Below are positions 7,656 through 56,033 of a DNA stretch of 64,000 nucleotides, in pieces. The notes under the pieces are model-generated. The model had not been told where the DNA came from. It worked only from the letters and a program-made list of their open reading frames with translations, and did not search any database. The position numbers and the translations under genes are program-made. Source of the stretch: an uncultured bacterium (lineage in GTDB: Bacteria; Patescibacteriota; Minisyncoccia; Phycocordibacterales; GWA1-40-21). How positions within the stretch are numbered: the first letter of the stretch is position 1; each line of letters begins with the position of its first letter. Location of the stretch: assembly GCA_963798465.1 (NCBI GenBank), contig CAWCTC010000001.1, positions 4,315 to 68,314 on the forward strand, in the 5' to 3' direction.

Positions 7656-8048
7656 AAAAAATTCAACTATAAACTATCGTGAAAATACTCAAAATATTTT
7701 TTGAATTAATTCCACATAACAGGTTAAAACAAAATGATTTGTGTATTTTTAAATTTCCTAATAAGAATCGGAAATTAGTATTGCTCGCCTGAACGCATTA
7801 CTCCACTTACAGCTGCAACCTATCACCTGATCATCTCTCAGGGTCCTCAAACGAATTCTAATCTTGGGGACGGCTTCACTCTTAGATGCTTTCAGAGTTT
7901 ATCCGTTCCGAACATAGCTACTCTGCGTTGCCCTTGGCAGGAACAGCAGATAGACCAGAGGTCCGTTCAACTCGGTCCTCTCGTACTAAAGTCAAATCCC
8001 CTCAAAATTCTACGCCTGCAGTAGATAGGAGACCAACCTGTCTCACGC

Positions 8049-8543
8049 ATGTTATCACAAATTACTCTGTGCATTGGACTATAGCTTATCCGAAAATTAA
8101 ATTTCGAGACTGTTGGTGTTTAGTCTCTACGGGTATTTATGAATTTCGTTGAAGTGTCAATTTTATAAAAGAAATTAGCTGGTCGAGGGGACAGGATTTT
8201 CACCTGAATGTCTTTGCCTATTGTAACAGCAACGCTCTTCTGAGGCGTACTCCTCCGAACTTATATTTTCATTAATATATACTTCAACGAAATTCACAAA
8301 CTTCCCTCGGTATAATCCACTTTCATGGACTCCACCGATACTAATCAACTTGATCATAATATTTTTATAAATATCAGACCGCCGTGATTTGATTGTGTCT
8401 TCTCTATCTATTTATATTCAATAACAAAATTTCTCATCCTGTTATGAGTTTATAAACGAAAATTTTCTAGTTCTAATACATAACAATTCCTCGATGGGAT
8501 TCAAACTGTCCAGATAACAAATAATTACTTTGTCTTCTGAACG
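8049..8543 (-). other. Intervening sequence in 23S domain V (group I-like intron, no endonuclease ORF)
   Basis: It interrupts ...GCGAGCTGGGTTCAAACCGT | CGTGAGACAGGTTGG. This is the site homologous to E. coli ~2593, the I-CreI-type homing site. About 495 nt with long internal stems (for example 8141-8155 pairs with 8284-8298). The only ORF is 60 aa with no endonuclease motif. Confidence 0.55.
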
Positions 8544-9204
8544 GTTTGAACCCAGCTCGCGTATCTTTTTAAATGGCGAACAGCCATACCCTTGGGAGCT
8601 TCTCCACCCCCAGGATAAGATGAGCCGACATCGAGGTGCCGAACTCCGCCGTCGATATGAACTCTTAGGCGGAACTAGCCTGTTATCCCTAGAGTAGCTT
8701 TTGTCCGATAATCTTCGGCCGCGTCTAATGCGGACGGTCGGTTCACTTTGCTCTGCTTTCGCATCTGCTCGACAAGTACGTCTCGCAGTCAAGCCAGCTT
8801 TTGCCAATACACTATCGGCACGGTTTCCATTCGCGCCTAGCTGACCTTAATAGACTCCTCCGTTACTTTTTAGGAGGATAGCGCCCCACTAAAACTACCC
8901 ACCAGATACTGTTTCTATGCGTTTTTTCCGTCAAAGGTTAGAATATATATTCAAAAAGAATGGTATTTCACTGACGGATCCATCTTCCCCGAAAGAAAAA
9001 CTTCAAATCCTCCCATCTACGCTACGCATTCAAAACATATACTCAATATCAAGTTGCAGTAAAGCTTCTAGGGTCTTTTCGTCTAACTGCAGGTAACCGG
9101 CATCTTCACCGGTATTGTATTTTCACCGAGCTGATCTTCGAGACAGTTCCCCACTCATTACACTATTCAAGCGCGTCTGAACTTACCAGACAAGGAATTT
9201 CGCT

Positions 9205-9429
9205 CAACCATTCCTCAAACGTTGGACTCTATCTTAATCCTCTAATAAATTAATTAAAATTTTTTCGTAGGATCCATGACGTTGGTCTCTTGTTAACCAT
9301 GTTGCGGACTAAGTGCAAATTACTTTGCATTAGGTAGCTACTTATTTTGTGTAATGCTAATTCATTTATCAAGGCCATAAATTTGCAACAGTCCTAGTCC
9401 TTCTGAAACTTTCTTGCGAAAGTTCCAGA
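9205..9429 (-). other. Intervening sequence in 23S domain IV (small group I-like intron)
   Basis: It interrupts ...ACGGTCCTAAGGT | AGCGAAATTCCTTGTC just 3' of helix 69, about E. coli 1925-1931. Length 225 nt, no ORF. Confidence 0.55.
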
Positions 9430-9464
<35 letters not shown>

Positions 9465-10273
9465 CAGGGCTTACAACAATCACCATTACCCTTGCGGATA
9501 ACAACGTCGTTAGTTGACCTTCTGGCATTGGTCAAGTGTCACCCCCTATACATCCTCTTACGAGTTCGCAGGGAGCTGTGTTTTTGATAAACAGTTGGCA
9601 GGGATACTTTAGCTGCGGCCCAAATAAATTTGGGCAAGCCTTATCCCGAAGTTACGGCTGCTTTTTTGCCGAGTTCCTTGAAGATCTATCACTCGTTCAC
9701 CTTACTCTACTCGAGCTGACCACCTGTGTCGGTTTACGGTACGGTCTTTACATATTTAAGCTTAGAGACTTTTCTCGGAAGCTTGCTTTGATAAATCCAC
9801 CACGGCGAACCGTAATATTTTCGCTGCGCTTTCGCTTATCATTAAAGAAAGAATTCCGGATTTACCTGGAACTCGCAATTACGCCACGAACGCAAATCCA
9901 ATAATGCGCTTATCATACTAAGCTTCGTCCTCCCATCGCAATATATAAAAGTCATGGAATATTAACCATGTGTCCATCGGGTGCGGCTTTCGCCATCCCC
10001 TTAGGCCCGACTAACCCTTCGCTGATTGTCATCGCGAAGGAAACCTTGGTTTTTCGGCGTGCGGGGTTCTCACCCGCATTGTGGTTACTTGTGCCAACAT
10101 TCTTACTTCAACACGCTCCACCATGGGTCACCCCTTCGCCTTCATCGCAGAGTTGAATACTCTCCTACCAATATAAATGTCCGAAGACATTCATAGTCCT
10201 CAGTTTCGGTACCATGTTTAACCCCGATTATCTGCGGCGCAAAATCTCTTAGTGAGTGAGCTGTTACGCTATC

Positions 10274-10305
<32 letters not shown>

Positions 10306-10810
10306 TCACTGTCTGAGAAAAATCACCACCTTAAGTGTACTTAACATAGATTTAGGGACCTTAAATAGAGATCCGGGCTGTTTCCCTTTTGACCATGGGG
10401 CTTAGCCCCCACAGTCTAACTGCCGAATAATTTACTTCATGGTATTCGGAGTTTGATAGGTCTTGCGATATTTCGACCTGTCAAGACCTTCCAGTGCTCT
10501 ACCCCCAGAAGGAACATGCAACGCTAGCCCAAAAGCTATTTCGGAGAGAACCAGCTATTACCAGGCTCGATTAGCTTTTCACTTCTTACCTCAAGTCATC
10601 CGAGAGTATTGCACGGCTCACCGGTTCGGACCTCCCCTCTGATTTCTCAAAGGTTCATCCTGCTCAAGATAAGCTCGCTCTGGCTTCGGGTCTGATGTAT
10701 AAAACAAACGCGCTATTCACACTCGGTTTCCCTATGGCTCCACCCGGTAAAGGGCTTAGCCTGCTTCATACATCAACTCGTTGGCTCATTCTTCAATAGG
10801 CACGCCGTGA

Positions 10811-10920
10811 CGGACAGCACATAACAAGTCAAAATTTATAAAGTCGAAATTCGAAATAAATGCTATTGCATATCCTTTAGACTTTATGGACTTTGGACTT
10901 TTCACTGGCTTGTGCTGCCC
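10811..10920 (-). other. 23S expansion hairpin (domain II variable helix)
   Basis: GGGCAGCACAAGCC...GGCTTGTGCTGTCCG-type long hairpin of ~110 nt, inserted between conserved GGAGTCGGAGC and TCACGGCGTGCCTATTGAAG. Confidence 0.5.
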
Positions 10921-10978
10921 GCTCCGACTCCTTGTAAGCATATGGTTTCAGGTCTATTTCACTGCCCTCACCGGGCTG

Positions 10979-11015
<37 letters not shown>

Positions 11016-11228
11016 ATCTCTAAAAATATTTAGCCTTACCGGTTAGTTCCGGCAGATTCCCTCAAGCTTTTCGTGTCCTGAGGTACTCAAGAATAATAAC
11101 GGAAAAGATATTTTATTTTCGCTTACGGGACTATTACCCACTAGGGTTCTGCTTCCCAGCAGATTCTGCTAACAAAATATTTTGTAACTTTTCTCATCTA
11201 TAAATAAATGACGTCATCATCTTACTAC

Positions 11229-11520
11229 ACCGATCACAAACTTTATGTACAAATTTTTCGTACTAAATAGTGGAGGCGAGTCATAGAATTTTTTTAGTGT
11301 TCTATGTTGTTACTCGCCCGTGGAGCTTGTTAGTCACAAGACAAAAAATCGGGGAAACCGAATGATCCTGTTAAAAATAACTAACTCACCTGGATATCCA
11401 ATTTCAGAGCTGCAGCCCTGAGTGCGGTTTCCAATAATTGAGAAACCCTATTGGGAATATCCTAATGCTCTCCACTATTTAATACAAAAAATAAATTTAT
11501 ACACAAAGTTTGTGATCGGT
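11229..11520 (-). other. ~290-nt structured insertion in 23S domain I
   Basis: Closed by a 16-bp stem (11229-11244 with 11505-11520, ACCGATCACAAACTTT/AAAGTTTGTGATCGGT), then an 11-bp stem (AAATAGTGGAG/CTCCACTATTT). Lies just 3' of AGTAGCGGCGAGCGAA in rRNA sense. No ORF. Confidence 0.5.
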
Positions 11521-12212
11521 TTGGGCTGTTTCCTTTTCGCTCGCCGCTACTAGGGAAATGTTGTTACTTGCGTAACATTGTTTTCTATTCCTCCAGGTAC
11601 TGAAATGTTTTACTTCCCTGGGTATGCATATTGCATCAAGTGCAATATAACCAATAAAATTGGCTGAGTTACCTCATTCGGAAATCTCTGGATCAAAGGT
11701 TGCTAAGCACCTCCCCAAAGCTTATCGCAGCTTAACTACGTCCTTCATCGCTTATTAGAGTCAAGGCATCCACCGTACGCCCTTAAATTTCCCATTAGGA
11801 AATTTAAAAACCACAATCTTTAAAAGTTTACGTTATAAACTTTAAATTTGTTTTAACCTGTTATATGGAATCAATTCCGTATAACAGTCTTATCAAAATT
11901 AATTGATAAAATTTTTTTAAATCATTTCAATCTCTCTCCAAGAAAAATTGAATGATTCACCTGCCTGCCTATAGCATCTATAAAAGACCCAATCCACTTA
12001 TCATGGAAAATTGGTAATGCTATGACAGAATGAAGATGTAAATTTTAATTATCATCCGCTAGGATAATCTCTGAAATCTTAATCTTATTTTTCAAGTTTC
12101 AATCTTTCTGATGAAAAAATCGCCTTTCGGCGACTAGTAGACAACATCAAAGATGCATCTATATAAGCCGCTTTAAAATTGATTTCTTGTATAACATATC
12201 TGTGTAAGAACG

Positions 12213-26750: not shown

Positions 26751-27092
26751 TTATTTTTTAGCTTCTGTCGATGCTTTTGCTGCTTTTGCTGCTGCTATTT
26801 CTGATTCTTTTGCGGCAATATCAAGTTCTTTCTGCATCTTACCTCCGTGTCTTGTAAACTTCCTTGTAGGAGAAAATTCTCCGAGTCTGTGTCCGACCAT
26901 ATCTTCGGTGACAAGAACTTCCAAATGCGTTCTGCCATTGTGAACTCCGAAAACAAAACCTACCATTTCTGGAGATATCTGGCTTCTTCTTGACCATGTT
27001 TTAATAACACCGGTTTCAATCGGTTTTTTGCCTTCTATTTTTTTTAGAAGTTTTTCATCTACATATGGTCCTTTTTTAAGCGATCTTGCCAT
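26751..27092 (-). CDS. rpsS: 30S ribosomal protein S19 (C-terminal Ala/Lys-rich extension)
   Basis: [21 protein letters not shown]...[55 protein letters not shown]. Confidence 0.92.
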
Positions 27093-27352: not shown

Positions 27353-27493
27353 ACTAATTTGGAATAGCGATTTGATTATTGTTGTTTTGACTATTTTTAG
27401 AACTTAAACCTCCAGCAATTCCCATAATCAAAAAACTGACGCCGATTATCAGTGCAAATGCTATCAAGAATTTGAAAAAGGTTGAATCGAACA
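27353..27493 (-). CDS. Small membrane protein (46 aa), hypothetical
   Basis: MFDSTFFKFLIAFALIIGVSFLIMGIAGGLSSKNSQNNNNQIAIPN. Below the track cutoff. The ATG abuts the end of the leader element. Confidence 0.35.
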
Positions 27494-27675
27494 TTTACCC
27501 GAGAAAATTTTTGCTGACTTGCCCGAAGAAAATTTGTAATAAAATTTTGACGGGTGAAAATGTGTTGGTGTTATATGACTAAACCATTTCGCAGATTTTT
27601 CTTTGCTAAAAGATTTATCGAATTGGTTAGCATTTTCAACACGTCAACAAAAACTTTAACGGGTTAATTATACCA
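27494..27675 (-). promoter_or_regulatory. TGnTATAAT promoter + structured leader element, copy A
   Basis: Minus strand: TGGTATAATTAACCCGTTAAAGTTTTTGTTGACGTGTTGAAAATG ... CAACACATTTTCAC ... GTCAGCAAAAATTTTCTCGGGTAA-ATG. Homologous to 35863-36016. Confidence 0.5.
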
Positions 27676-27679
27676 TTTT

Positions 27680-29362
27680 TTAAAAATTGTAGAATATATG
27701 GATGAAAGATTTTATTCCACTGGCTGGAATATCAACCAATTTCGACCAAAAGCTCTTTGTCGATGAGGAATAGGAATTATTATCAGGAACTGAAAGACCT
27801 GAGTTCAAAACAGACGCAGTCTGATCAAGATTTTCTGCATTGGAATTTGCTGTCGATGTTGCTGACTCTTCCCTAGTCACGGCAATTTTATTATTCTGGT
27901 TATTTTTCAAAGCAAGAGAATCTTTGTAATTTTTTAGCAATTTTTCCGCATCTTCTACAGAAATATAATTACTTGATGAAGCAACGGCAAGATTACTTTC
28001 TGGCTGTGAGGTTGTTGCATTTTGCTGACCAAAATTATCAGAAGCTACTTCCCCATCAGTAGGATTATCAAGAAATATTCCGCTCGTCGAAGCGTCTATT
28101 CCCAAATCGTCTTTCGCCAAAATAATCTTATTTCCAGCACTTATGATGGTATCTTTCGGAAACAAAAAATCTTTTTGCATTCCCTTAATTTTCCAATTTC
28201 CAACATTTATTTCGGTTACTCCATTATTTTTAATTTCTATATCGCCATTTTCCGTATCTGAAATTGAAATGTCGGGAGAAACTACATTTACCGTAGTTCT
28301 GGAAATAGAATTATACTCTCCGCAAGTTCCGTTCAAAACGACTTGATATTCCCCGGGATATTTGTAGTTATGAGAAACATCCGTGCCTTCAGCATCAAAT
28401 CCATCGCCAAACGACCATGTAAATAAGGGAGAACATTGGCCATTTTGTTCAATATTATACTTGGCATCAAATTCAATCGGCGAGCCGACCGAAGCCAATC
28501 TTTCCCTTCCCGCCGAAATTTCAAAATCATTTTCATCATTATAATTGCTTATGTCTTCCGGATCCGAATGCGAAGAAACATAAACTATTTGTGTAGTTAT
28601 ATTTGTAATTGGCACTTGAGAAGTGGAAGAAGCAACCGATACTGTAGCACTACTACTTGCAGATCCTCCATCACAAGATATTGTAAAAATAGTATTAGCT
28701 GTCAAATTGTCTGAAGAAGCAGAACCAGATGTGCCGACTTGCCATGAAGAAGTGGCACCTTCAGATATTGCGCAAGAATTAACATTGCTTGAATTCCAGG
28801 AAATGGTTGTGGAAGAATTATAAGAAATAGACGAAGGTGCGGCAAAAATTGTGGCAGTTGGAGTTGTGCCTGAAGGAGGTGACGGAAGAGGTGACATTGA
28901 TGTTCCAATATTTATGATTTGGGTTGCTGAAATCCAGGACTGTCCTTGGGCCGAAACAGTTAAAGTAAAAGTCCCGTTTGTAGAATCCGAATAGCAAAAT
29001 CCTTTGTTTGCTTTGCTAGTTGACATTGTCAGCGTACCAGTAGCAGAAATTACAGCCCCGCATTCTCCGCCAATACTCGCGTTGTAAAAAATTCCAGTCG
29101 GAGAGGAAGATATAAATTGTAATTTTGTTGCTGAGCCAACCGCGGTTGAAGTACTGTCCGCATCTTGTGTCTGAACAGTCATAATTTGTGAAATCATACC
29201 AACTCCAATGTTTTGCGGGGCTGAAGTAAAAACTAATTTTGTTATATTACCATCTGCAAAAACTTTCTCCACAGAAATAAAATTAAAAAATATTACTGAT
29301 AAAAAAATCACAAACAAAAAGAACAAATTTTTATTTTTCATAATTATAAAATATATTAACAT
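27680..29362 (-). CDS. Secreted multidomain protein (Ig-like repeats, PKD domain, lamin-tail-like domain)
   Basis: Signal/TM segment KNKNLFFLFVIFLSVIFFNFISVEKVFA. PKD-like FTWSFGDGFDAEGTDVSHNYKYPGEYQVVLNG. LTD-like IEIKNNGVTEINVGNWKIKG...ISAGNKIILAKDD. Confidence 0.7.
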   Translation of the reverse strand: MLIYFIIMKNKNLFFLFVIFLSVIFFNFISVEKVFADGNITKLVFTSAPQNIGVGMISQIMTVQTQDADSTSTAVGSATKLQFISSSPTGIFYNASIGGECGAVISATGTLTMSTSKANKGFCYSDSTNGTFTLTVSAQGQSWISATQIINIGTSMSPLPSPPSGTTPTATIFAAPSSISYNSSTTISWNSSNVNSCAISEGATSSWQVGTSGSASSDNLTANTIFTISCDGGSASSSATVSVASSTSQVPITNITTQIVYVSSHSDPEDISNYNDENDFEISAGRERLASVGSPIEFDAKYNIEQNGQCSPLFTWSFGDGFDAEGTDVSHNYKYPGEYQVVLNGTCGEYNSISRTTVNVVSPDISISDTENGDIEIKNNGVTEINVGNWKIKGMQKDFLFPKDTIISAGNKIILAKDDLGIDASTSGIFLDNPTDGEVASDNFGQQNATTSQPESNLAVASSSNYISVEDAEKLLKNYKDSLALKNNQNNKIAVTREESATSTANSNAENLDQTASVLNSGLSVPDNNSYSSSTKSFWSKLVDIPASGIKSFIHIFYNF

Positions 29363-29403
29363 CCACCATCCCTCTTTCTCTAACTTTTTTGTGGATAACT
29401 TTT

Positions 29404-29422
29404 GCGAAGGTCTGACCTTCGC
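29404..29422 (+). repeat. REP hairpin a (GCGAAGGTCTGACCTTCGC)
   Basis: Palindromic hairpin 7 nt beyond the RAYT stop codon. Confidence 0.75.
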
Positions 29423-29428
29423 AAGAAA

Positions 29429-30121
29429 TTATTTAATATCTATTTTCTCTGGATTAAAATTTAGCCACTCAAATAAATTATTTTTAAAATTTTCTTTCGA
29501 CTCAAAATATTCCGGAAAAACTTTTTTATCTAAAATATCATTTTCTAATCTTTTCAAACCAAAATAATCCAAATAACTTGAATAAGTGTAAACATTTAAA
29601 AAATCCTTAGCTTTTTCAAAATCGCTTATACCAACATCTTTCCAATCAGATTGAATTAATTTTATTGGATTTAAGTGTATATATGAATATAAAAATTTTA
29701 GATAATTGTCATTATTGGCATGCTTTGCTTGAAACCTTCCTTGAAACAAGGCGCCACTCCTTTCATATTTTTTATTAAAATACATTGAGTATGAAGTTAA
29801 TAATTTTTGAAAAAAATTAGATATGCCGCCAGGAATTTTTTCACTAACCAATAAATGGAAGTGGTTCGGCATTAAGCACCAGGCACCAATATTAATCAGA
29901 TCTTTTTCTCTTGTATTTGCTAGGTTTGCGAAGGTCTGGCCTTCGCAGACATCATTTCTCTTCATTTCCCTAACATCTGTAGGCAAACTACTATTGCAAA
30001 TTTTTAACAAAAATAAAAATCGATCATAATCATATTTGTCCATAAAAATATCTCTTTTATCAACTCCCCTATTATAAATATGATAATATTCGCCTTCTGA
30101 AAATTTTATTTTTCTGTTCAT
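29429..30121 (-). CDS. REP-associated tyrosine transposase (RAYT; IS200/Y1 HUH family)
   Basis: 230 aa. EGEYYHIYNRGVDKRDIF, HUH motif CLMPNHFHLLV, catalytic Tyr region LYSYIHLNPIK. Flanked by REP hairpins. Confidence 0.8.
   Translation of the reverse strand: MNRKIKFSEGEYYHIYNRGVDKRDIFMDKYDYDRFLFLLKICNSSLPTDVREMKRNDVCEGQTFANLANTREKDLINIGAWCLMPNHFHLLVSEKIPGGISNFFQKLLTSYSMYFNKKYERSGALFQGRFQAKHANNDNYLKFLYSYIHLNPIKLIQSDWKDVGISDFEKAKDFLNVYTYSSYLDYFGLKRLENDILDKKVFPEYFESKENFKNNLFEWLNFNPEKIDIK
29928..29946 (+). repeat. REP hairpin b, inside the RAYT coding sequence
   Basis: GCGAAGGTCTGGCCTTCGC, translated in-frame as ..VCEGQTFAN.. of the RAYT. Confidence 0.75.
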
Positions 30122-30171
30122 CCAAAAATGATTATAACAACTTTTATATAAATAACAAAAAATAAAAACCC

Positions 30172-30190
30172 GCGAAGGTCTGGCCTTCGC
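30172..30190 (+). repeat. REP hairpin c
   Basis: GCGAAGGTCTGGCCTTCGC, upstream of the RAYT start. Confidence 0.75.
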
Positions 30191-30222
30191 GGTTTTTTAT
30201 TTTGAACAATTTTCGCTAACTT

Positions 30223-30241
30223 GCGAAGGTCTGGCCTTCGC
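30223..30241 (+). repeat. REP hairpin d
   Basis: GCGAAGGTCTGGCCTTCGC, with the same TAACTT...AAAAT flanks as copy a. Confidence 0.75.
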
Positions 30242-30256
30242 AAAATTTTGACAACA

Positions 30257-30286
30257 GAAAAGGCCGGCTCTTTCGAGTCGGCCTTT
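30257..30286 (-). terminator. Terminator of the 1164-aa surface protein gene
   Basis: AAAAGGCCG...CGGCCTTTT hairpin followed by a T-run on the minus strand. Confidence 0.65.
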
Positions 30287-30340
30287 TCTTAACCTATTCT
30301 TCTATGACGAATCCCATAGATAGAATCACAAGTGGTTATA

Positions 30341-33300
30341 TTAGTTGACCATTGATGAATAATTCTGTTGAGCTGTGCTGTATGAAGGTATCAACGTTGC
30401 GTTGATTCCTGTTGCTGCACCCTCTATATCATCCCATTTAACAAAGTTGGCTGAACCAAGCTGTGTTTTAATAGAATCATTACCTGCACCAAGAGTAGCA
30501 CCCGTTATGTTCGCTAGAACATCGAATGTTACTGTTGTATTTGCTGGGATTATGTAACCTGTACCATTAAACGCCAAAGTAGTTGTTCCATTTGACGCTG
30601 ATGATGAAGCTATAACGACACTTGAATTACCATCTACAACAAGGTTTATATTACCTGTTGTTGAAGCTGCGCCTGCAAATGACAAAACTATAGGAAGAGC
30701 AGTCAAATTGACTGAATTTCCAGAAGCTGTAACTGTAATTTGTGCTATCTGCAGATTGGTTCCATCGATGTTACCCTGAGTTGGCTTAGTACTCTGTACA
30801 AGGTTAATTACTGGGTAAGCTGCAACTGGTGTCAATTGTGAGCTTGAAGGTATTGGTGAAGGATAAAGCGTATTCGTTGCATTTCCAGATATGAATTTAA
30901 CTCTGGTCAATTGTAACTGAACTGGAACATCTGAAGGTATTCCGCCATTTGAACTTACATTATTGTAAGTAACAGTGACTGGAATATCTGTACCTGCATT
31001 CGAAAGCGGTATTGAAATACCAACTGGGAATGACAATGTTGTTGTAGCACCGAGAGAAACGGCTTGTGTAACGCCTGCGACAGTGATTGATGTAATCGCT
31101 GGTGAACCTACTGGAGTTGTGTTGAAATCCATTTCAGTTATTGAAGCTGCACCAATTGTAGACTTGAAGTTGAAGGTTGCGATAGCTGAATTTGATGTAC
31201 CTCCGAGAACAAGCTGTGCGCTAGGTGAAGCTGATGTAAGTGTAGGAGCATTTACTATTGATCCTACTCCAACTGTGAACGTCTGACCTACAACTGCTGG
31301 CCTTGAAGCATCTATGTTGCTGATTACACCGTTAGCTGTGACAGCCAAAGATGTTGATGCTGTTGAACCTGTTGTTAGAATTGAAGCACCGCCACCCAAT
31401 TTTCCTGAAACTGATGTAGCCAAAGTAACTGTTGTACCGTTTGCATTAGTTGCACTCTCGGTAATAGTTACATCGTTTCCATAGGTTGTGTTGTAATTCA
31501 ATGCTGTTGTTTTAGCTGTCAAAGTAAGTATTTTACCTGTTGCATTAACTGACGCTGTTACAGGAGAAGTACTTGAACCATTTATTGCAGCTAACATATA
31601 ACCTGCCATAGTAACATCTGTCGTACTAGCAAGGTAGCTACCAACAGTATATGAATTACCACCGACTACAACTGTCGCAGTATTGCCAATCTCAAAGTGA
31701 GATCCTCCGGCAAATGCAACTGTAGCTGTCGCCGCGCTTATTGATGTTGATGAAGTCAAATTTCCAATATCAGCAAAAATATCAACTGTCTGTGAACCAT
31801 TTGCTGGAATTGTTATATTTGTGCTGAAGTTGTTTGAAAGCTGTGGATTAACTTTTGTTGAATTAACTGATGTGTACAAATTTGACAAACCAGTAATTCC
31901 AAGTGAACCTCCGATATTTACTGTCAAACCAGTAACTCTTACCGCTTCTGATGAGTTTGAACTCAAAACGAATGAACCAATTTTGAAGTTAGTTGTATTC
32001 GCTGTAAGTGTTGAACTGTTATATGAAGCGTTCTGAGCGACTGTTAAACCTGCGCCGACTACTGACATAGTAGGACCGGTTACAGGATTTAATGGGAATG
32101 TTGACAAGGTTGAAGAATATGAACCCTGAGCATTGTTTGGATAACTTGACAAAGTTATCACTGTGCTCGTTCCTGCAGGAATATTTACGCCTGCTGGGTT
32201 CTTAAGATCTCCCTTTACATCAAGTGAAACTGTTCCTCCAGCTGGGATTACCAAAGATGATCCTAGGCTGAATAGAGTAGGTGTCGTTGAAGAAACATTC
32301 TGTGAGCTTGAAATTGATGCTCCGTTTGCGTATAAAGTGACATTTGTCAAATCTTGAGTTGCAGAAATATTAAGATAAGAAACCTTAACATCTTCTCCGT
32401 AACCTCTCAATGTGTATTTTGCCAAATCTACGTTTGTTGAACCTACAACTACATTGCCTGAGCTAAGTGTTGCATCTTGTGATGCTGACAAAGATCCTGC
32501 ATTTATGCTGATTGTATTTTCAGACATTGGAATACCTGAAGCTGTGATTCCGACATTGTAGTTTGAATCTACGACTTGGAAATCTGCAGCATTCTGCAAA
32601 TCAACGCTGAATGTTCTGTCTGCACCGTTTACTATATCTGCTCTTACTTCAATTGATCTGTTGCTGTCGATCTTGTAAGGATTTGATGAAAGATCAAAAG
32701 TGATCATTCCATTGTTATCCACACCTGATGCTGTAGCAACTTGAACTCCTGAAATAAACAAACCGATATTTGCAAGTGAATTTGAAGGAACTGAACCGAT
32801 TACCTTGAAAGCTGCGCTCTTAAGATAAACTGCTCTTCCGCCTTCCGAAAGACTTGCTCCCCAGATTGTGTACTGCAATGTTCCGGCATCAACTTGTGTT
32901 GCTGGCTGTACTGCTGTAAGACCAATTGTAGCAAGATCTGTTGCAACAGCTACCGTGAAGGTAGAACCTGTTATTGGATATACTCCTGAACCTGGGATGC
33001 TTGCTGTGACTCCTGTCAAAGCAACATTTACTGTTTGTCCGGCTGCAGCACTTGAAGCTATATCAGCTTTTACTGCAACTGTTACTGATTGCCCTGGAGC
33101 AACAGTGAACAATCCTGTTCCTGAATTAAATGTAATTTGTCCAGATGAAACTGTAGCTGCATCTGTCAATCTTGTTGCACCTTGGAAAAGGTAAACATTC
33201 GCAAGTGAAGTATCTGCTGAAACTCCGCCTCTCTGCAATGTTACGTTTGTAACAACTGCTGGAGCTGATGAAGTGTTCGTGAATGTGTATTCTGCCAAGT

Positions 33301-33835
33301 CTGCTGCTGCTTGACCTTCAATGACTGAACCTGCTGAAGGTGATGTAGCTGCTAAGGCGAAGTTTAAGCTTGAACCTGTTGCTACTACTGTTGTGCCTCC
33401 TGTTGTTGTCGTTGTGACTGAACCTGCTGTTGCATTTACTTTAGCCATTGTTATAGGACCAAAGTATCCGACTGCTGGTGAAATTCCCATAGCTGCCTGA
33501 TATTTTGCTAAAGCTGTTTTTGTCAAATTTCCAAAGTAACCGAATGCTGTGCCGGCTGGCATAACGAGGTCACCTTGAGCGACAAGAATATTTTGCAAAG
33601 CTGTGACATCTGCACCTGAACTTCCAATCGTGAGACTCTTAGTGAAAGTGTATGATGAAGCTGTTGCGACTGGTGCTGCTATTGAAGCCATCAATGATGA
33701 TGCTTGCGTAGCATTGATTATTCCTGCTGCTTGAAGCATAGAAATATCTGCTGACGTCAAAGCAAAGACTGAAGTAGCAACCAATGAAAGTGTCATCACA
33801 ATTGATGCAATGACACCGATTTTATTTTTACTCAT
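30341..33835 (-). CDS. Large wall-associated surface protein (S-layer/adhesin-like) with N-terminal peptidoglycan-binding domain
   Basis: 1164 aa. Signal peptide MSKNKIGVIASIVMTLSLVATSVFA. PG_binding_1-like GSSGADVTALQNILVAQGDL...GYFGNLTKTALAKYQAAMGI. The remaining ~1000 aa are Thr/Ser/Ala/Val/Gly/Asn-rich beta-type sequence with almost no charged residues. The gene has clearly higher GC than its surroundings. Confidence 0.7.
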   Translation of the reverse strand: MSKNKIGVIASIVMTLSLVATSVFALTSADISMLQAAGIINATQASSLMASIAAPVATASSYTFTKSLTIGSSGADVTALQNILVAQGDLVMPAGTAFGYFGNLTKTALAKYQAAMGISPAVGYFGPITMAKVNATAGSVTTTTTGGTTVVATGSSLNFALAATSPSAGSVIEGQAAADLAEYTFTNTSSAPAVVTNVTLQRGGVSADTSLANVYLFQGATRLTDAATVSSGQITFNSGTGLFTVAPGQSVTVAVKADIASSAAAGQTVNVALTGVTASIPGSGVYPITGSTFTVAVATDLATIGLTAVQPATQVDAGTLQYTIWGASLSEGGRAVYLKSAAFKVIGSVPSNSLANIGLFISGVQVATASGVDNNGMITFDLSSNPYKIDSNRSIEVRADIVNGADRTFSVDLQNAADFQVVDSNYNVGITASGIPMSENTISINAGSLSASQDATLSSGNVVVGSTNVDLAKYTLRGYGEDVKVSYLNISATQDLTNVTLYANGASISSSQNVSSTTPTLFSLGSSLVIPAGGTVSLDVKGDLKNPAGVNIPAGTSTVITLSSYPNNAQGSYSSTLSTFPLNPVTGPTMSVVGAGLTVAQNASYNSSTLTANTTNFKIGSFVLSSNSSEAVRVTGLTVNIGGSLGITGLSNLYTSVNSTKVNPQLSNNFSTNITIPANGSQTVDIFADIGNLTSSTSISAATATVAFAGGSHFEIGNTATVVVGGNSYTVGSYLASTTDVTMAGYMLAAINGSSTSPVTASVNATGKILTLTAKTTALNYNTTYGNDVTITESATNANGTTVTLATSVSGKLGGGASILTTGSTASTSLAVTANGVISNIDASRPAVVGQTFTVGVGSIVNAPTLTSASPSAQLVLGGTSNSAIATFNFKSTIGAASITEMDFNTTPVGSPAITSITVAGVTQAVSLGATTTLSFPVGISIPLSNAGTDIPVTVTYNNVSSNGGIPSDVPVQLQLTRVKFISGNATNTLYPSPIPSSSQLTPVAAYPVINLVQSTKPTQGNIDGTNLQIAQITVTASGNSVNLTALPIVLSFAGAASTTGNINLVVDGNSSVVIASSSASNGTTTLAFNGTGYIIPANTTVTFDVLANITGATLGAGNDSIKTQLGSANFVKWDDIEGAATGINATLIPSYSTAQQNYSSMVN

Positions 33836-34390
33836 ATCTAATTTATAATTTTTAATTAAAAGAAAAAACTTTCCTTAACATTAACTAATAAAAAGCTAAT
33901 AACGTTGGAAAGAATCTCTTCGTTTTCTCACCAGTGAACTCTTTCGAGCAAAATAAAATGTTTCGACTAAAAACTTTTTTATTTAAATCTGATGAACATC
34001 TTTATTCCCATTGAAATTTATGAAATGACCTTTCAAAAATTTCGGGATAACACACGGCCGACATATTGCACGTGCGACTTCCTTTCTACTATTCCCTCTT
34101 TTTTATATTCTCAATCACACGATCGTCTTGAGCAGACAAAAGTTTTTTAGTGAATGAGTTCGACACAAAAAAGTTGGATTAGTTGGCGTGAACAAAAACT
34201 ATCTTTCTGTAATTCTGAACTATTCAATTGTCAAAGTTCTCGACCACTGACAAATGGACTTGAGCGAGTCCGAATCAGTTTTTCTGTATTGGTTAATCTT
34301 TTCAGATTAACCGATTAGACCGCCTTTAAAAGCCGTCTAATTTTTGAGAAATACAAAGCGTTTTTAGGCGCAACATACATCTCAACAATC

Positions 34391-34419
34391 ATTATATATC
34401 TTGTTAGAATATCTAGCAA
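34391..34419 (-). promoter_or_regulatory. Candidate strong promoter of the surface protein gene (TTGCTA-N17-TATAAT)
   Basis: -35 at 34414-34419 and -10 at 34391-34396 (minus strand). Implies a ~550-nt 5' UTR. Confidence 0.45.
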
Positions 34420-34623
34420 AATAAATAACTGTGGATAACTAAAAAAAGTTTCTACCTATCGCCATTGACTTAAGACGCTTAAATAAAAACTGCAACTAAT
34501 ATAGCCACAAAAGTATTGTTGCACACTAAAGGTGAAAAGGCAACGAAAAAACTATTGATTATTTACTAAAATTCTTGGTTAATTTTCAATAAAATTGTTT
34601 CGTAAATAAAGGACAAAAAAACT

Positions 34624-34642
34624 GCGAAGGTTTCACCTTCGC
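34624..34642 (+). repeat. REP hairpin e (variant GCGAAGGTTTCACCTTCGC) within a longer terminator hairpin
   Basis: Embedded in AAAGGACAAAAAA...TTTTTTGTCCTTT (34607-34664), just after the wHTH gene stop. Confidence 0.6.
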
Positions 34643-34661
34643 AGTTTTTATTTTTTGTCCT

Positions 34662-35516
34662 TTACTTAGATATAAAATATTTTGACCATCTTCTTTCTCC
34701 CTCCTTTTTTAAGGTCCCTTTTGATACTAAAGATAGGAGTTCTCTCTGTATAGTTTTTTCGCTGCAGTCTTTTATATTTTGAGCAAAATCCTTTATCGTA
34801 AGTTTTATTCCGCTTTTTAACATTGAGAGAATAATATCTTGTCTGTTGTTTTTGTCCTTTATAATTTTTACCGGCGCAGTTGTTTTTATAACAGACATTT
34901 TTTCAACTGGATTATTTTTTGTGTTTTCATCAGCAGATTCTTTCTGTCCTTTATAAGAGACATTTGTGTCTGTTATAGGATTATTTTTAATTAGGTTTGC
35001 ATCTGTTATCTGCACGGAAGGATCCTTGAAAGTCTGTTTTGGAATATATTTATAATCGCCGTCAAACATGTTCGGTTCAAAAGCAATTTTTGCCGATGAA
35101 AAATTTGACGAAGAGGTTATAATAAAATCAGTCAATTTTCTGAGCTCGGCAGTAATTATTTGATGATTCATTTTTGACATCATTTTTGCATTTTCAGCGA
35201 CATCAAAAAGAACTGATAATTCTCCGATAGCCAACAAAAGATTTTTCTGAAATATTTCTTCACCCCAAACTCTATTGGACATGTTCAAAGCATTCTCAAG
35301 CATCTTGTTTGCAAGTGCTCTAGCTCTTTCTCTCATCGGTTCTTTTTCAGACATCAATCCTGTTAAAAGATAAACTGCTTTTACTAGTTTTTCTGTCTTT
35401 TGAAAAACAAACAAACCATATGAGTCACCAGCAAAAAGGACACTAATATCAGCTGTAGCAGCTTTACTGTTTTGATTTTGAGAAGTTATTAAATTATTTT
35501 GATTTTGATTTTCCAT
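34662..35516 (-). CDS. Putative transcriptional regulator with C-terminal winged helix-turn-helix
   Basis: 284 aa. C-terminus LTIKDFAQNIKDCSEKTIQRELLSLVSKGTLKKEGERRWSKYFI (DeoR/HTH_11-like wHTH). The helical N-terminal domain is uncharacterised. Confidence 0.55.
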   Translation of the reverse strand: MENQNQNNLITSQNQNSKAATADISVLFAGDSYGLFVFQKTEKLVKAVYLLTGLMSEKEPMRERARALANKMLENALNMSNRVWGEEIFQKNLLLAIGELSVLFDVAENAKMMSKMNHQIITAELRKLTDFIITSSSNFSSAKIAFEPNMFDGDYKYIPKQTFKDPSVQITDANLIKNNPITDTNVSYKGQKESADENTKNNPVEKMSVIKTTAPVKIIKDKNNRQDIILSMLKSGIKLTIKDFAQNIKDCSEKTIQRELLSLVSKGTLKKEGERRWSKYFISK

Positions 35517-35862
35517 ATTTTATATATATGAATGTCTTTTAATAAAAAGTCCTTTATTTTCAGGTGTCTTTTATGTTTGTCCTTTTATTTATAAAGGACC
35601 GGAGAGCAACTTACTGATTAGTTTATTATGTCCATTACTAAATGTCAATGACTATTTTACTACTATAAAAGACATTTGTCAATAGGACAAATGGGGGACA
35701 TTTTAAGAGTATTTTGACAAAAAATTTTACATTAAATCATATGCATATTTGTAAGCACGGCGAAGCAATCCAGAATTAATAATCTAGATTGCTTCACTGC
35801 GCTCGCAAAGACAAAAAAGTAATGGCTTATAAAATAAATTACAGGAAATTATAAAATATTTT

Positions 35863-36016
35863 TGTTATAATTAACTCGCTAAAGTTTTTGTCGACGTGCT
35901 GAAAATGAGGGTTTGATAGAGATACATTTTATCAAATAAATATATCAAAATATAACCGCCAGTTCATGTAACATCAGCACACATTTTCATCGACAAAAAT
36001 TTTCTCGGGTAAATAT
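35863..36016 (+). promoter_or_regulatory. TGnTATAAT promoter + structured leader element, copy B
   Basis: TGTTATAATTAACTCGCTAAAGTTTTTGTCGACGTGCTGAAAATG ... CAGCACACATTTTCATCGACAAAAATTTTCTCGGGTAAATATC-ATG (22-aa uORF 36018-36086), leading into ftsK. Confidence 0.5.
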
Positions 36017-36049
36017 CATGGCATCAAAAAATAAAGGAAAAAAGAAAGA

Positions 36050-36153
36050 CCCCGTAAAGAATTTTATAAGAACAATTGTTGACTAAACTTAAATACTGAA
36101 ATTAACAAAAAATATCATGTCAAAATTAAAACGAAGTGAAAATTCACACAGGG
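36050..36153 (+). promoter_or_regulatory. Start-codon cassette, copy 2
   Basis: CCCCGTAAAGAATTTT ... ATG(36117) ... GAAAATTCACACAGGG. Confidence 0.6.
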
Positions 36154-38423
36154 CAAGAAAAACAAATTCAAAATCAGAATATAAAAACGATGTATTAAGC
36201 AATATAAAAAATGAAACTAAACAAGGAATATTGGCTGTCACTTTTTTAGTTTTGGGGATAATTTTTATTTTAGCTTCAATCAAGACCGGAAATTCTGGAC
36301 ATGAAGTCTATTACGCGGGACCAGTCGGAAAAGGAACTTATGATTTTCTTTCCACTCTTTTTGGTATCGGATATTTTCTTATTCCGCTATTTTTTCTCAT
36401 GTTCAGCATTTCTTTTTTTAAGGCAGAAGAACGAGAATTCAATAAGTTAAAAATCTTCGGCGGAATATTATTTTTTGTCTCCGGTCTTGGAATGATTGAT
36501 CTTGTTTCAAGACAATATTGGACTGCGCAAGGAGGCAAATTTGGCTGGCTCATTTCCACTCCTCTTTCAAGCATGTTCGGCTTCTATGCAAGTGTAATTA
36601 TTTTATTCGCACTTCTTATAATTTCTTGTCTCATTTTATTTGAAACGAGAATTACAGTTGAGTCACTTTTATTCTGGAGAAAAGAAAAAGAAACGAGGAC
36701 GAAGACGAAGATGAGGATATAAAGGTAATTGCCGAAAATTGAAGAGGAGGAAAAAAAGAGAAAGAAATTGAAAAAGAAGAAAAGAAAAGAAAAAGAAACA
36801 ACAAAAGGAGCGTTCATAAAAAAGAATGAGGAAGAGGAATCGGGAATAAAATTTAATCCGAAAATGGTGGGAAATACAAAATATGTTCCTCCCCCACTTT
36901 CTCTGCTTGAAGATGATAAAGGAAGAATGGTTTCCGGTGATATAAAAGCAAATGCAAATATTATAAAAAGAACTTTGCAAAATTTCGGCATTGATGTCGA
37001 AATGGATGAAGTTTCAATCGGACCATCAGTCACAAGATATGCACTCAAGCCAGCCGAGGGAGTGAAAATTTCAGAATTATCGGATTGCAAAATGATCTTT
37101 CACTTGCTCTTGCCGCGCACCCTCTCAGAATTGAAGCTCCGATTCCCGGCAAATCGCTTGTCGGAATAGAAATACCGAACTCCGTAAAATCAACAGTCGG
37201 TCTTGCTGCACTTATTGGTTCCGAAGAATTCCAAAAATCGGACAAGCCGCTTCTTGATAACACTTGGAAAAGGAATTTCCGGAAAATCACATTATGCAAA
37301 CTTGGCAAAAATGCCGCACGTTCTTGTTGCGGGAGCAACTGGTTCAGGAAAATCTGTGACAATTCACGCAATCATCACTTCCCTTCTTTATCGAAATTCG
37401 CCGGAAAATTTGAAATTTATAATGGTTGATCCAAAAAGAGTCGAGCTTACTCTATACAACAAAATTCCCCACCTCCTCACTCCGGTCATCACCGATGCAA
37501 AGAAAACTATTCTTGCTTTGAAATGGGCAACAAAAGAAATGGATCGCAGATATGATGTACTTGAATCCATGCGGTAAAAGATATAGATTCATATCACAAA
37601 AATATTTTTGCTCCAGCACTCAAGAAAAATTGAGGAACTGAAGAAAAAAGGAACTTATAATCCGGAAAAAAATGTTGTGCCGGAACCGATGCCATTATAT
37701 TGTCATAATAATAGACGAGCTCGCCGATATTATGATGGCTTATCCGCGAGAGCTTGAAGCCGGAATCGTTCGTCTTGGCTCAAATGAGCCGAGCTGTCGG
37801 TATCCACTTATACTTTCCACCCAAAGACCTTCCGTGAATGTCATTACCGGTATCATCAAAGGCAAATATTCCAGCAAGAATCGCCTTCAGGTGGTCTCCC
37901 AGATAGATTCAAGAACAATTTTGGATACCACAGGCGCGGAAAAACTTCTCGGTGCTGGAGATATGCTTTATATCGGCGGAGAAATGTCAAAGCCCGTGAG
38001 AATCCAGTCTGCATTCGTTTCTGAAAAAGAAGTTAAAGATGTTGTGAAATATTTGGTTGATTCATACAAGAGATGAGCTTATCGGCGGAGAAATTGATTT
38101 AGCAGAAGTCGCAAAAGGCGGAGATGAAAGCGGAGGCGTCGGAGTATTCAATAGTCTTGAAGATGACGATGGGATGAATTGTACGAGCAAGCAAAAGAAG
38201 AAGTTTTAAAAGCTGGAAAAGCATCAACTTCATATATACAGAGAAAACTTCGAGTCGGATATGCGCGAGCGGCAAGACTTGATTGATTTATTGGAACAGA
38301 AGAGGCGTTATAGGTCCTGGCGACGGTGCAAAAGCGAGAGAAGTCATCGGAAGTGGAGAAAATATTGAAAAATCTAAGATGCAGAAGAAGTGGATGAAAA
38401 TGCACAAAGAAGATCAGATATAG
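36117..38423 (+). CDS. ftsK: DNA translocase FtsK (multiple frame changes / in-frame stops)
   Basis: N-terminal TM domain (36117-36722). Then ...[10 protein letters not shown]...[61 protein letters not shown], Walker [40 protein letters not shown]. The gamma domain reads [26 protein letters not shown]. Read across at least 5 frames or fragments. Confidence 0.85.
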
Positions 38424-38479: not shown

Positions 38480-38836
38480 ATGACAGACAGATACGAAACA
38501 AGAAAATTTCTTAAAATAGTTATTATTTCTTTTGTTATTATTATGCTTACTCGGATATACCGCGTATGAAATACAGAAAGTTATTTTCGGTCCAAGAATA
38601 ACGGTATTCCTACCCCAAAAATGGTTCAACGGTATCGGATTCCTACATTGAAATAACAGGAATGGCAAAAAATATAAATAGTATATCAGCATGGATGACA
38701 GAAAATATTTATGGATGAGAAAGGAAATTTTAAAGAAGAAATACTTCTCTCCTCCGGCTACAATGCAATAACGATCAAAGCCAGCGATAAATTCGGCAGA
38801 AACACGGAAAAAATAATTGAGGTTATTTATAAATAA
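38480..38836 (+). CDS. Small secreted/membrane hypothetical protein (frame changes)
   Basis: MTDRYETRKFLKIVIISFVIIMLT... and C-terminal ...DEKGNFKEEILLSSGYNAITIKASDKFGRNTEKIIEVIYK, in different frames. Confidence 0.35.
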
Positions 38837-38883
38837 TATGATAAAATTAGAGAGAAATAATTATTAATTTTAATAAATCAAAA

Positions 38884-39979
<1,096 letters not shown>

Positions 39980-39991
39980 TATTTAAAAAAT

Positions 39992-56014: not shown

Positions 56015-56033
56015 GCGAAGGCCAGACCTTCGC
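56015..56033 (-). repeat. REP hairpin f (inverted orientation, GCGAAGGCCAGACCTTCGC)
   Basis: Exact reverse complement of the REP at 30172-30190, about 26 kb from the RAYT. Confidence 0.7.

Follow-up and report, generated by a model that had tools for sequence, protein, structure and literature searches.

The closest described counterparts of the elements considered here belong to several distinct systems. Repetitive extragenic palindromic (REP) sequences and REPINs, together with the REP-associated tyrosine transposases (RAYTs), are short imperfect palindromes dispersed in intergenic DNA and accompanied by a small HUH/Y1 nuclease gene flanked by inverted repeats; their non-coding copies far outnumber the coding ones and they leave no target-site duplications. 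The Correia repeat-enclosed elements of Neisseria are palindromes 100-160 bp long, bounded by inverted repeats of ~26 bp and occurring also in shorter, deleted forms; they lie next to genes and are co-transcribed with them. A -10 box is found at their junction, RNase III acts on their hairpin RNA, a TA target is duplicated, and no coding partner is known for them. A third counterpart is the free-standing GIY-YIG homing endonuclease gene, e.g., the seg genes of phage T4 (PMC2988022), and a fourth is found in the rRNA genes of candidate phyla radiation (CPR) bacteria, which carry GIY-YIG-encoding, non-intron insertions at stem-loops (PMC11270868). Here, we compare with these systems two related elements, A and B, from a 64,000-nucleotide stretch of an uncultured patescibacterial genome (contig CAWCTC010000001.1; hereafter, the window). 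Our analysis suggests that A and B probably derive by internal deletion from a small, palindromic and mobile cassette that is dispersed in a Patescibacteria clade (Paceibacteria-like) and codes for a GIY-YIG nuclease in its full-length form; the two copies would be non-autonomous.

The first-pass annotation had described A and B as a pair of TGnTATAAT promoter-leader elements, homologous at their ends and different in their middles, which face outward from an 8-kb island. The relationship between the two is borne out by direct comparison: they agree at 89% of positions in the 45-nt 5' block and at every position of the 21-nt 3' block CAAAAATTTTCTCGGGTAAAT, each block occurs just twice in the window against 0.00-0.03 occurrences expected from shuffled sequence, and the middles do not align. 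The elements were also correctly placed, but their extents had to be corrected to those in Table 1, with the TGnTATAAT box falling outside the conserved unit, 3 nt before the conserved block in both cases. A covariance model built without A recovers A with 67.3 bits (E 3e-10), in agreement with nhmmer, and scores B, which was part of the training set, at 105.8 bits. When further copies were sought with this type of model, unfiltered, and with nhmmer, A and B were the sole matches inside the window. Searches of Rfam 15 at A and B returned nothing at the gathering threshold, nor up to E = 10. A is longer than B because it holds a nested 38-nt micro-hairpin; this carries the family's ends, and the same unit, at 40-44 nt, is found free-standing at two loci of other genomes (L003 and L068).

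The idea that A and B form a matched pair tied to the island is not supported by the number and distribution of their relatives: the family, A and B included, numbers at least 104-124 copies in ~13 genomes, each at its own gene start. In a scan that covered one genome per species, the exact 3' 20-mer AAAAATTTTCTCGGGTAAAT was found at 102 loci, nearly all of them in ~13 metagenome-assembled genomes (MAGs) of Patescibacteria, Paceibacterota, Taylorbacteria and similar lineages, with 2-20 copies per MAG by this exact-match search alone. The 5' block CCCG(T/C)TAAAGTTTTT (CCCGYTAAAGTTTTT) lies 111-278 nt upstream in 104 of 112 copies (window included) and is almost invariant, though it was not the search pattern. 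Seeding on the 5' block instead yielded 124 distinct copies, with the 3' block exact in 102 and showing 1-4 differences in most others. The copies fall into size classes of 125-149, 150-185, 190-245 and 298 nt, with 70, 9, 14 and 9 members, respectively. A metagenome scan with the 5' block yielded only 4 loci. Among viral contigs there were no matches to the 3' 20-mer, and 11 matches to the 5' 18-mer were rejected as phage coding sequence devoid of the 3' block. We also noted a 91-nt subfamily with the same ends and two GC-richer internal hairpins (L006 3926-4016, L068 6625-6715 and a minus-strand copy in L082), as well as tandem or abutting copies of the family at three loci (L011, L057 and L060). 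A complete 166-nt copy in a contig binned as a Nanoarchaeota MAG (L033, JAGVNG010000033.1) probably reflects mis-binning, possibly transfer, and matches in Limnobacter (L055) and a Methanosarcinales MAG (L089) that are without the 5' block look like chance.

The key to the nature of these elements is the 298-nt class. All nine of its copies contain an 89-codon open reading frame (ORF) that runs in frame to the end of the element, terminating in ...AAA AAT TTT CTC GGG TAA (..SKNFLG*). This ORF matches the GIY-YIG domain (PF01541) over residues 2-73 with E-values of 1e-15 to 5e-14 (52.8-58.1 bits against a cutoff of 22.6), its nearest solved counterparts are the single-domain UPF0213 proteins 1zg2 and 1ywl, and no separate DNA-binding domain was found in its 89 residues. 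Relatives in metagenomes form at least 133 clusters, named "GIY-YIG nuclease family protein"; P0003, looked up across assemblies, was found at one locus, upstream of pheS. Because of the reading frame in the 298-nt class, the conserved 3' part of the family can be identified as the last eight codons plus the stop codon of the GIY-YIG gene, with the 5' part corresponding to its 25-nt leader. The PF01541 domain itself is found in the 298-nt class only, and A and B retain just the last eight codons.

A hidden Markov model (HMM) of the 298-nt class brings out a graded series: copies of 213-241 nt retain positions 2-135 and 242-302, those of 150-185 nt retain less, and those of 131-142 nt, A and B included, match only ~2-25 and 265-302. 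Descent by deletion is thus well supported by these alignments for the intermediate (150-245-nt) classes, and by extension A and B may likewise have arisen by deletion from the coding form. The classes also differ in the remains of the reading frame. In class-1 copies the KNFLG* frame holds a leaderless upstream ORF (uORF) of 14-16 or 27 codons, which an internal TGnTATAAT precedes by 7 nt; class 2/4 copies, including A and B, are without an in-frame start. In A and B the KNFLG* frame contains no in-frame ATG and no in-frame ORF; a conserved uORF was rejected for them, as the ATG in block Y opens only non-conserved ORFs of 3-20 codons.

Several lines of evidence point to copying of the family as DNA. 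Two full-length copies 10 kb apart on opposite strands of contig JAVHRR010000033.1 (L073 and L088) are identical at 298 of 298 positions, from (A)CCCG to TAAAT, within unrelated flanks. Short copies are up to 97% identical at unrelated loci within one genome, and 96% identical between PLOL and JAVHRR, two genomes with a gene identity of only about 75-79%. The interior of A is ~88% like that of a non-orthologous copy (L087) in the close relative PLOL and unlike that of the orthologous copy (L036), whereas the flanks of A match the latter. The gene at 38481 is element-free in the window, and its orthologues bear either a 162-nt (L034) or a 298-nt (L092) copy at the same ATG junction. Comparison of empty and filled sites suggests replacement of a spacer rather than simple insertion, with no duplication. 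The terminal inverted repeats are ~19-26 bp long and imperfect, and covary between subfamilies. Further copies, conserved interiors and target-site duplications had been named in the first-pass annotation as pointers to a miniature inverted-repeat transposable element (MITE); copies abound, interiors vary and duplications are lacking, an outcome that lies largely on the MITE side.

The position of the copies is as distinctive as their ends. In 74 of 104 copies, the final AT of the element and the G that follows it make up the start codon of an ORF no shorter than 30 codons (usually 100-860); 84 of the 104 have an ATG no more than 4 nt away. At the other end, 42 of 103 copies, including A and B, show a -10-like hexamer, often with TG, at one fixed offset 3 nt before CCCG (-9 from CCCG); one subfamily has an internal TGnTATAAT ~64 nt before the ATG instead. 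The downstream genes are unrelated housekeeping genes, comprising trmD, pilB, comM, murJ, murG, murA, ddl, adk, ruvA, recO and others, with 107 Pfam families in 90 genes. Across 600 ORFs from the window and loci L001-L106, a Shine-Dalgarno (SD)-like core is present in only 50 (8%), and the distance from -10 box to ATG has a sharp maximum at 6-7 nt, with 73 ORFs (38 with TG) where the background is ~1 per position; leaderless genes, of which the window offers examples, therefore seem common in this clade.

Empty sites indicate what the elements have entered. A ruvA-like gene is empty in three genomes, where its start reads TGATATAAT-TTTAGAC-ATG, TGATATAAT-CTAACA-ATG and GTAGTATCAT-TAAACTT-ATG, and filled in PLOL, where it reads GTAGTATCAT-TAA-element-TAA-ATG. 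For a second gene, three genomes show a leaderless start and a fourth reads TGGTATAAT-ATA-element-TAA-ATG. Judging from these alignments, both directly compared genes own the putative TGnTATAAT promoter, with the element lodged in its spacer; this is the strongest argument that the elements would be transcribed as leaders. More broadly, 10 of 29 empty orthologous starts have leaderless geometry, 8 with TG, whereas the background rate is 42 of 600. If CCCG...CGGG is deleted from A on paper, the remaining TATAAT-TAATAA-ATG has the modal leaderless spacing, and in the distant relative JAVHRR (L034) the box TTTGTTATAATTAAC (TGTTATAATTAAC) precedes the uORF of ftsK with no recognisable element between them. 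A role of CTCGGG as a sigma-54 box or SD-like sequence was rejected on spacing and consensus. Of the proposed promoter-leader organization, the location between a plausible extended -10 box and a start codon stands, and the leaders that A and B would contribute on transcription are predicted at 140-171 nt.

The pairings ascribed to A and B were also confirmed. Both have a long closing stem in predicted RNA folds (-49.2 kcal/mol, z -7.0 for A; -36.0 kcal/mol, z -4.6 for B), with covariation between subfamilies (GC to AU, 7; CG to UA, 7; UA to CG, 33; AU to GC, 30). In the coding form, the wobble position of the Ser codon (AGC/AGT), a synonymous site, varies in step with its 5'-arm partner in 9 of 9 full-length copies. 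The inner complementarities GTGYTG:CARCAC (X:X') and GAAAATG:CATTTTC (Y:Y'), which cannot both be nested, are perfect (7/7) in 53 and 57 of 71 short copies, respectively, against means of 5.4 and 5.7 pairs of 7 in non-cognate controls, and Y occurs in covarying types (GAAAATG/CATTTTC, GAAGATG/CATCTTC, GAAAGTG/CACTTTC and AAAAATT/AATTTTT). Y:Y' is derived in the short forms, because the full-length form does without it (best 4/7). These inner pairings had been taken to imply a pseudoknot or two alternative conformations, and only the latter survives: an H-type pseudoknot of X:X' plus Y:Y' is excluded by geometry, since the linkers have zero length, and the swapped order S-X-Y ... X'-Y'-S (S being the closing stem) with such linkers makes the blocks two alternative registers of one hairpin.

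This architecture, combined with the fixed promoter/start-codon position and the stable folds, speaks for dedicated cis-regulatory RNA leaders, i.e., a switch or thermosensor toggling between X:X' and Y:Y' and thereby controlling translation of the downstream gene, with the family as a global regulon and any mobile origin old or irrelevant. The covariation extends to the closing stem and two mutually exclusive helices, and the absence of Y:Y' from the coding form, with its rise in the short forms, resembles selection on non-coding copies. Yet among ~1500 pairs ~95% are Watson-Crick and the remainder comprise 17 G·U, 24 A·C and 41 others. As a selected RNA helix should favour G·U, the lack of a G·U excess means that a DNA inverted repeat fits at least as well. 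The other evidence also sits poorly with a switch, in that there is no Rfam match, the downstream genes share no function, orthologues do without the element, identical copies occur at unrelated loci, and the interiors are swapped between loci and poorly conserved, with no consensus inner structure found in their alignment. Given the unrelated genes, the variable and swapped interiors and the missing G·U excess, a dedicated RNA switch or pseudoknot is not indicated, and we regard this explanation as unlikely. Ordinary host expression signals, in which a standard 5' untranslated region and a UAAAUG-coupling uORF are homogenised by gene conversion, are themselves immobile and are used by the GIY-YIG gene as one ORF among several, would accommodate the class-1 leaderless uORFs with their internal TGnTATAAT, the adjoining of the stop codon and host ATG in most copies and the rarity of SD sequences. 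They do not account for class 2/4 copies without an in-frame start, a sharp-bordered 298-nt unit identical at two unrelated loci, the graded deletion series, the nested micro-element in A, or the conservation of synonymous sites and the mutual inverted repeats of the ends, and we consider them decidedly improbable.

Two further explanations concern A and B as individual loci. They might be inverted terminal repeats of the 8-kb island, as in a composite transposon or invertible segment, or divergent promoters split by its insertion, since they are mutually inverted, flank 27680-35516, and the island carries an IS200-like Y1 transposase gene. The outward-facing geometry is true; however, the corresponding stretch of the close relative (PLOL01000021.1, 88-98% identical) holds the island with copies of A and B on either side and differs solely by lacking the 1.66-kb Y1_Tnp stretch (28594-30253). 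Moreover, the 284-aa gene beside ftsK already adjoins it in a genome only ~75% identical, and A and B, with their differing interiors, are not each other's nearest relatives. The outward arrangement is therefore coincidental. The Y1_Tnp gene also has its own unrelated hairpin repeats, and single copies of the family precede unrelated genes throughout the related genomes, so that this explanation is largely refuted and retains very little probability. That A and B are small RNA genes (6S-like or other structured small RNAs) with their own promoters is hardly credible at all: such genes could well have the 140-171-nt length, the long closing stem and the promoter-like 5' box seen here, but no terminator separates the element from the ATG, most copies run directly into the initiation codon of a genuine gene, there is no Rfam match, and the 3' end is coding in the full-length form.

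We thus return to deleted copies of a mobile cassette as the preferred account of A and B, against which a number of observations must be set. Two mutually exclusive inner pairings are conserved. No target-site duplication accompanies the identical copies L073 and L088 (flanks ..TTAA|..|ATGC and ..TTCA|..|GATA), nor is there a TA duplication; no recognised transposase was found for the family; and an 89-aa GIY-YIG domain without a DNA-binding domain is not known to move DNA. "Mobile" could therefore mean gene conversion between copies and not transposition. The middles of the short classes (~70-80 nt) show no HMM-detectable homology to the nuclease gene, and a full-length copy is found neither in the window nor among the 11 copies recovered from the closest relative. 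The invariance of the 3' 20-mer is partly a matter of ascertainment because it was the search pattern, and the sigma-70 scan requires a -35 element, so that TGnTATAAT boxes without one go unlisted.

Set beside the described systems, the family resembles REP/REPIN-RAYT in all the features given above except the protein, which is a GIY-YIG and not an HUH/Y1 nuclease, and is itself multicopy (1-3 found per genome); unlike REP sequences, its copies keep to the junction of promoter and start codon and run in the direction of the gene. The window also contains a true Y1_Tnp-plus-hairpin system, a separate one whose hairpins differ from those of the family. With the Correia elements it shares palindromic units, inverted ends, deletion forms and a -10 box at the junction, but it has no TA duplication, possesses a coding full-length form, and meets the start codon at its 3' end. 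In common with the GIY-YIG homing genes it has a small GIY-YIG gene between host genes, present or absent at orthologous sites and prone to decay; the homing enzymes, however, have a DNA-binding domain and one allelic site, in contrast to an 89-aa protein with the catalytic domain only and a cassette with inverted-repeat ends, many loci and multicopy miniature derivatives. The CPR rRNA insertions, by their description, come from the same bacterial group, are non-intron, in some cases encode GIY-YIG proteins and lie at stem-loops; they are located in rRNA genes, as opposed to the messenger RNA leaders occupied by this family. Intervening sequences in rRNA are removed by RNase III acting on the closing stem, and something similar could apply to the present family. 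Riboswitch and attenuator leaders have the same 5' position and two mutually exclusive conserved helices, whereas the family is without a conserved ligand-binding core or shared gene function, behaves as a mobile element and shows Watson-Crick-only covariation. Like MITEs, A and B are small, non-coding and members of a multicopy family with terminal inverted repeats, but no target-site duplication was seen. The nuclease encoded by the 298-nt form with the same ends is a candidate for the enzyme that moves them. The family thus fails a defining feature of each of REP/RAYT, the Correia elements, homing endonuclease genes and rRNA intervening sequences. We file it with the palindromic non-autonomous repeats that have a small nuclease partner, its insertion niche being unusual. 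In the literature searched, whose coverage is incomplete, we found no description of this family, which is weak evidence of novelty.

The features of A and B and their immediate surroundings are collected in Table 1. The layout is as first described, with A leading into a 46-aa ORF and B into a 22-aa uORF followed by ftsK; the ATG of the former (27494-27492) consists of the last AT of A and the following G, and the same 46-aa ORF is found behind family copies at three further loci (L036, L053 and L079).

Table 1. Elements A and B, their constituent blocks and adjoining features in the window (positions counted from its first letter)
Feature	Position	Strand	Remarks
Extended -10 box TGGTATAAT, upstream of A	27667..27675	-	Direct reading; followed by TAA, then the element; taken as host promoter
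Element A, 171 nt, short non-coding member, class 2	27493..27663	-	CCCGTTAAAG... to ...CTCGGGTAAAT
A, closing-stem 5' arm (S5) CCCGTTAAAGTTTTTGTTGAC	27643..27663	-	Pairs with 27498-27517; family covariation at four variable pairs
A, inner block X (GTGTTG)	27637-27642	-	Complementary to X'; inner-block order swapped
A, inner block Y (GAAAATG)	27631-27637	-	Complementary to Y'
A, inner block X' (CAACAC)	27562-27567	-	Complementary to X
A, inner block Y' (CATTTTC)	27556-27562	-	Complementary to Y
A, nested 38-nt micro-hairpin CCCGTCAAAATTTTATTACAAATTTTCTTCGGGCAAGT	27517..27554	-	Not in PLOL L036 or L087
A, 3' arm (S3) TCAGCAAAAATTTTCTCGGG plus TAAAT	27493..27517	-	Full-length member encodes ..KNFLG and stop codon here
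46-aa ORF, ATG completed by end of A	27354..27494	-	Then rpsS at 26751-27092
Extended -10 box TGTTATAAT, upstream of B	35863..35871	+	Taken as host promoter
Element B, 140 nt, short non-coding member, class 2	35875..36014	+	Ends ...CTCGGGTAAAT (36014)
B, S5	35875-35895	+	Alignment
B, X	35896-35901	+	Alignment
B, Y	35901-35907	+	Alignment
B, X'	35975-35980	+	Alignment
B, Y'	35982-35988	+	Alignment
B, S3	35990-36009	+	Alignment
B, TAAAT	36010-36014	+	Alignment
22-aa uORF MASKNKGKKKDPVKNFIRTIVD, starts 3 nt after B (ATG 36018)	36018..36086	+	ftsK from 36117

The surroundings of A and B yielded several observations in their own right. A terminator-like hairpin (35673-35693, minus strand) and a 27-nt imperfect inverted repeat (35748-35809) lie between the 284-aa gene and B. 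The 22-aa uORF before ftsK is kept in the distant relative (L034, 1560-1620), while in PLOL (L059, 145-330) a 108-nt in-frame deletion fuses the first 13 codons of the uORF to an intact 761-aa ftsK; the deleted stretch starts ACCCCGTAAAGAATTTT, resembling the 5' block of the element. In the window, ftsK (36117-38420) and recA (~38880-39980) are disrupted by an in-frame TAA (36720) and several frame changes, and the close relative has both genes undamaged (761 aa and 362 aa). The disruption marks them either as pseudogenes or as victims of assembly indels; an alternative genetic code was rejected, as frame changes are involved and no single stop reassignment repairs ftsK or recA. Six copies of another hairpin repeat, GCGAAGGTCTGGCCTTCGC, which is unrelated to the family, lie within and beyond the island (29404-30241, 34624-34642 and 56015-56033). 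Four of the sites surround the IS200-like Y1_Tnp ORF (29429-30121, minus strand), forming a REP/RAYT-like or IS200/IS605-like unit. Farther away, the 23S rRNA gene (7755-11799, minus strand) spans 4045 nt against a 2925-nt model, with ~1.1 kb of insertions, in which three internal ORFs have no Pfam match and no intron family was reported; 23S rRNA insertions are typical of CPR bacteria.

Taken together, the evidence is most readily explained if A and B are MITE/REP-like relics, which would be transcribed as leaders. The full cassette of 298 bp consists of a 25-nt 5' arm, an 89-codon UPF0213/YhbQ-like GIY-YIG gene, and a 3' arm formed by the eight final codons and the stop of that gene, the two arms being inverted repeats of one another. 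Its copies stand directly upstream of host start codons, in the two compared genes inside the 6-7-bp spacer between -10 box and ATG, such that the host TGnTATAAT promoter would transcribe the element as a 140-171-nt leader and the terminal TAAAT would supply or abut the start codon. The arms may be kept complementary by the need for a DNA hairpin or cruciform, either for a structure-specific nuclease or for the copying process. In the transcript, the stem would enclose the insert and either return the 5' end next to the AUG or allow RNase III to remove the insert, and in both cases the host gene would stay expressed. In full-length and class-1 copies, the abutting of stop and host start (UAAAUG) suggests that termination-reinitiation may be possible, whereas A and B would have lost this stop-start coupling ORF; their start codons follow a helix of 19-26 bp and lack an SD sequence.

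A bolder version of this scheme, which we put forward only tentatively and regard as rather doubtful, is that the 298-bp cassette is an autonomous mobile element. The 89-aa nuclease, being structure-specific, would act on the hairpin or cruciform of the cassette's own ends, and the "homing site" would be a generic motif, the -10/start-codon junction of leaderless genes, so that the cassette and its miniature derivatives could spread to many genes. Once transcribed, the insertion would be rendered harmless by its terminal stem, through a return of the 5' end to the AUG or through RNase III excision, with UAAAUG as a second rescue. If autonomous, the cassette would, to our knowledge, be among the smallest autonomous mobile elements.

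For the annotation of such genomes, our findings imply that such conserved "leaders" are better treated as repeats, to be masked, than reported as candidate riboswitches; the structured-RNA look of their ends would be explained by partly decayed coding sequence. If the proposed explanation is true, the streamlined, ultra-small genomes of these bacteria tolerate tens of selfish palindromic cassettes between the -10 box and the start codon of leaderless genes, and the model offered is one of insertions made harmless at the RNA level. It would also link three features: leaderless expression in Patescibacteria, repeats of the REP/MITE type, and the many small genes annotated as "GIY-YIG nuclease family".

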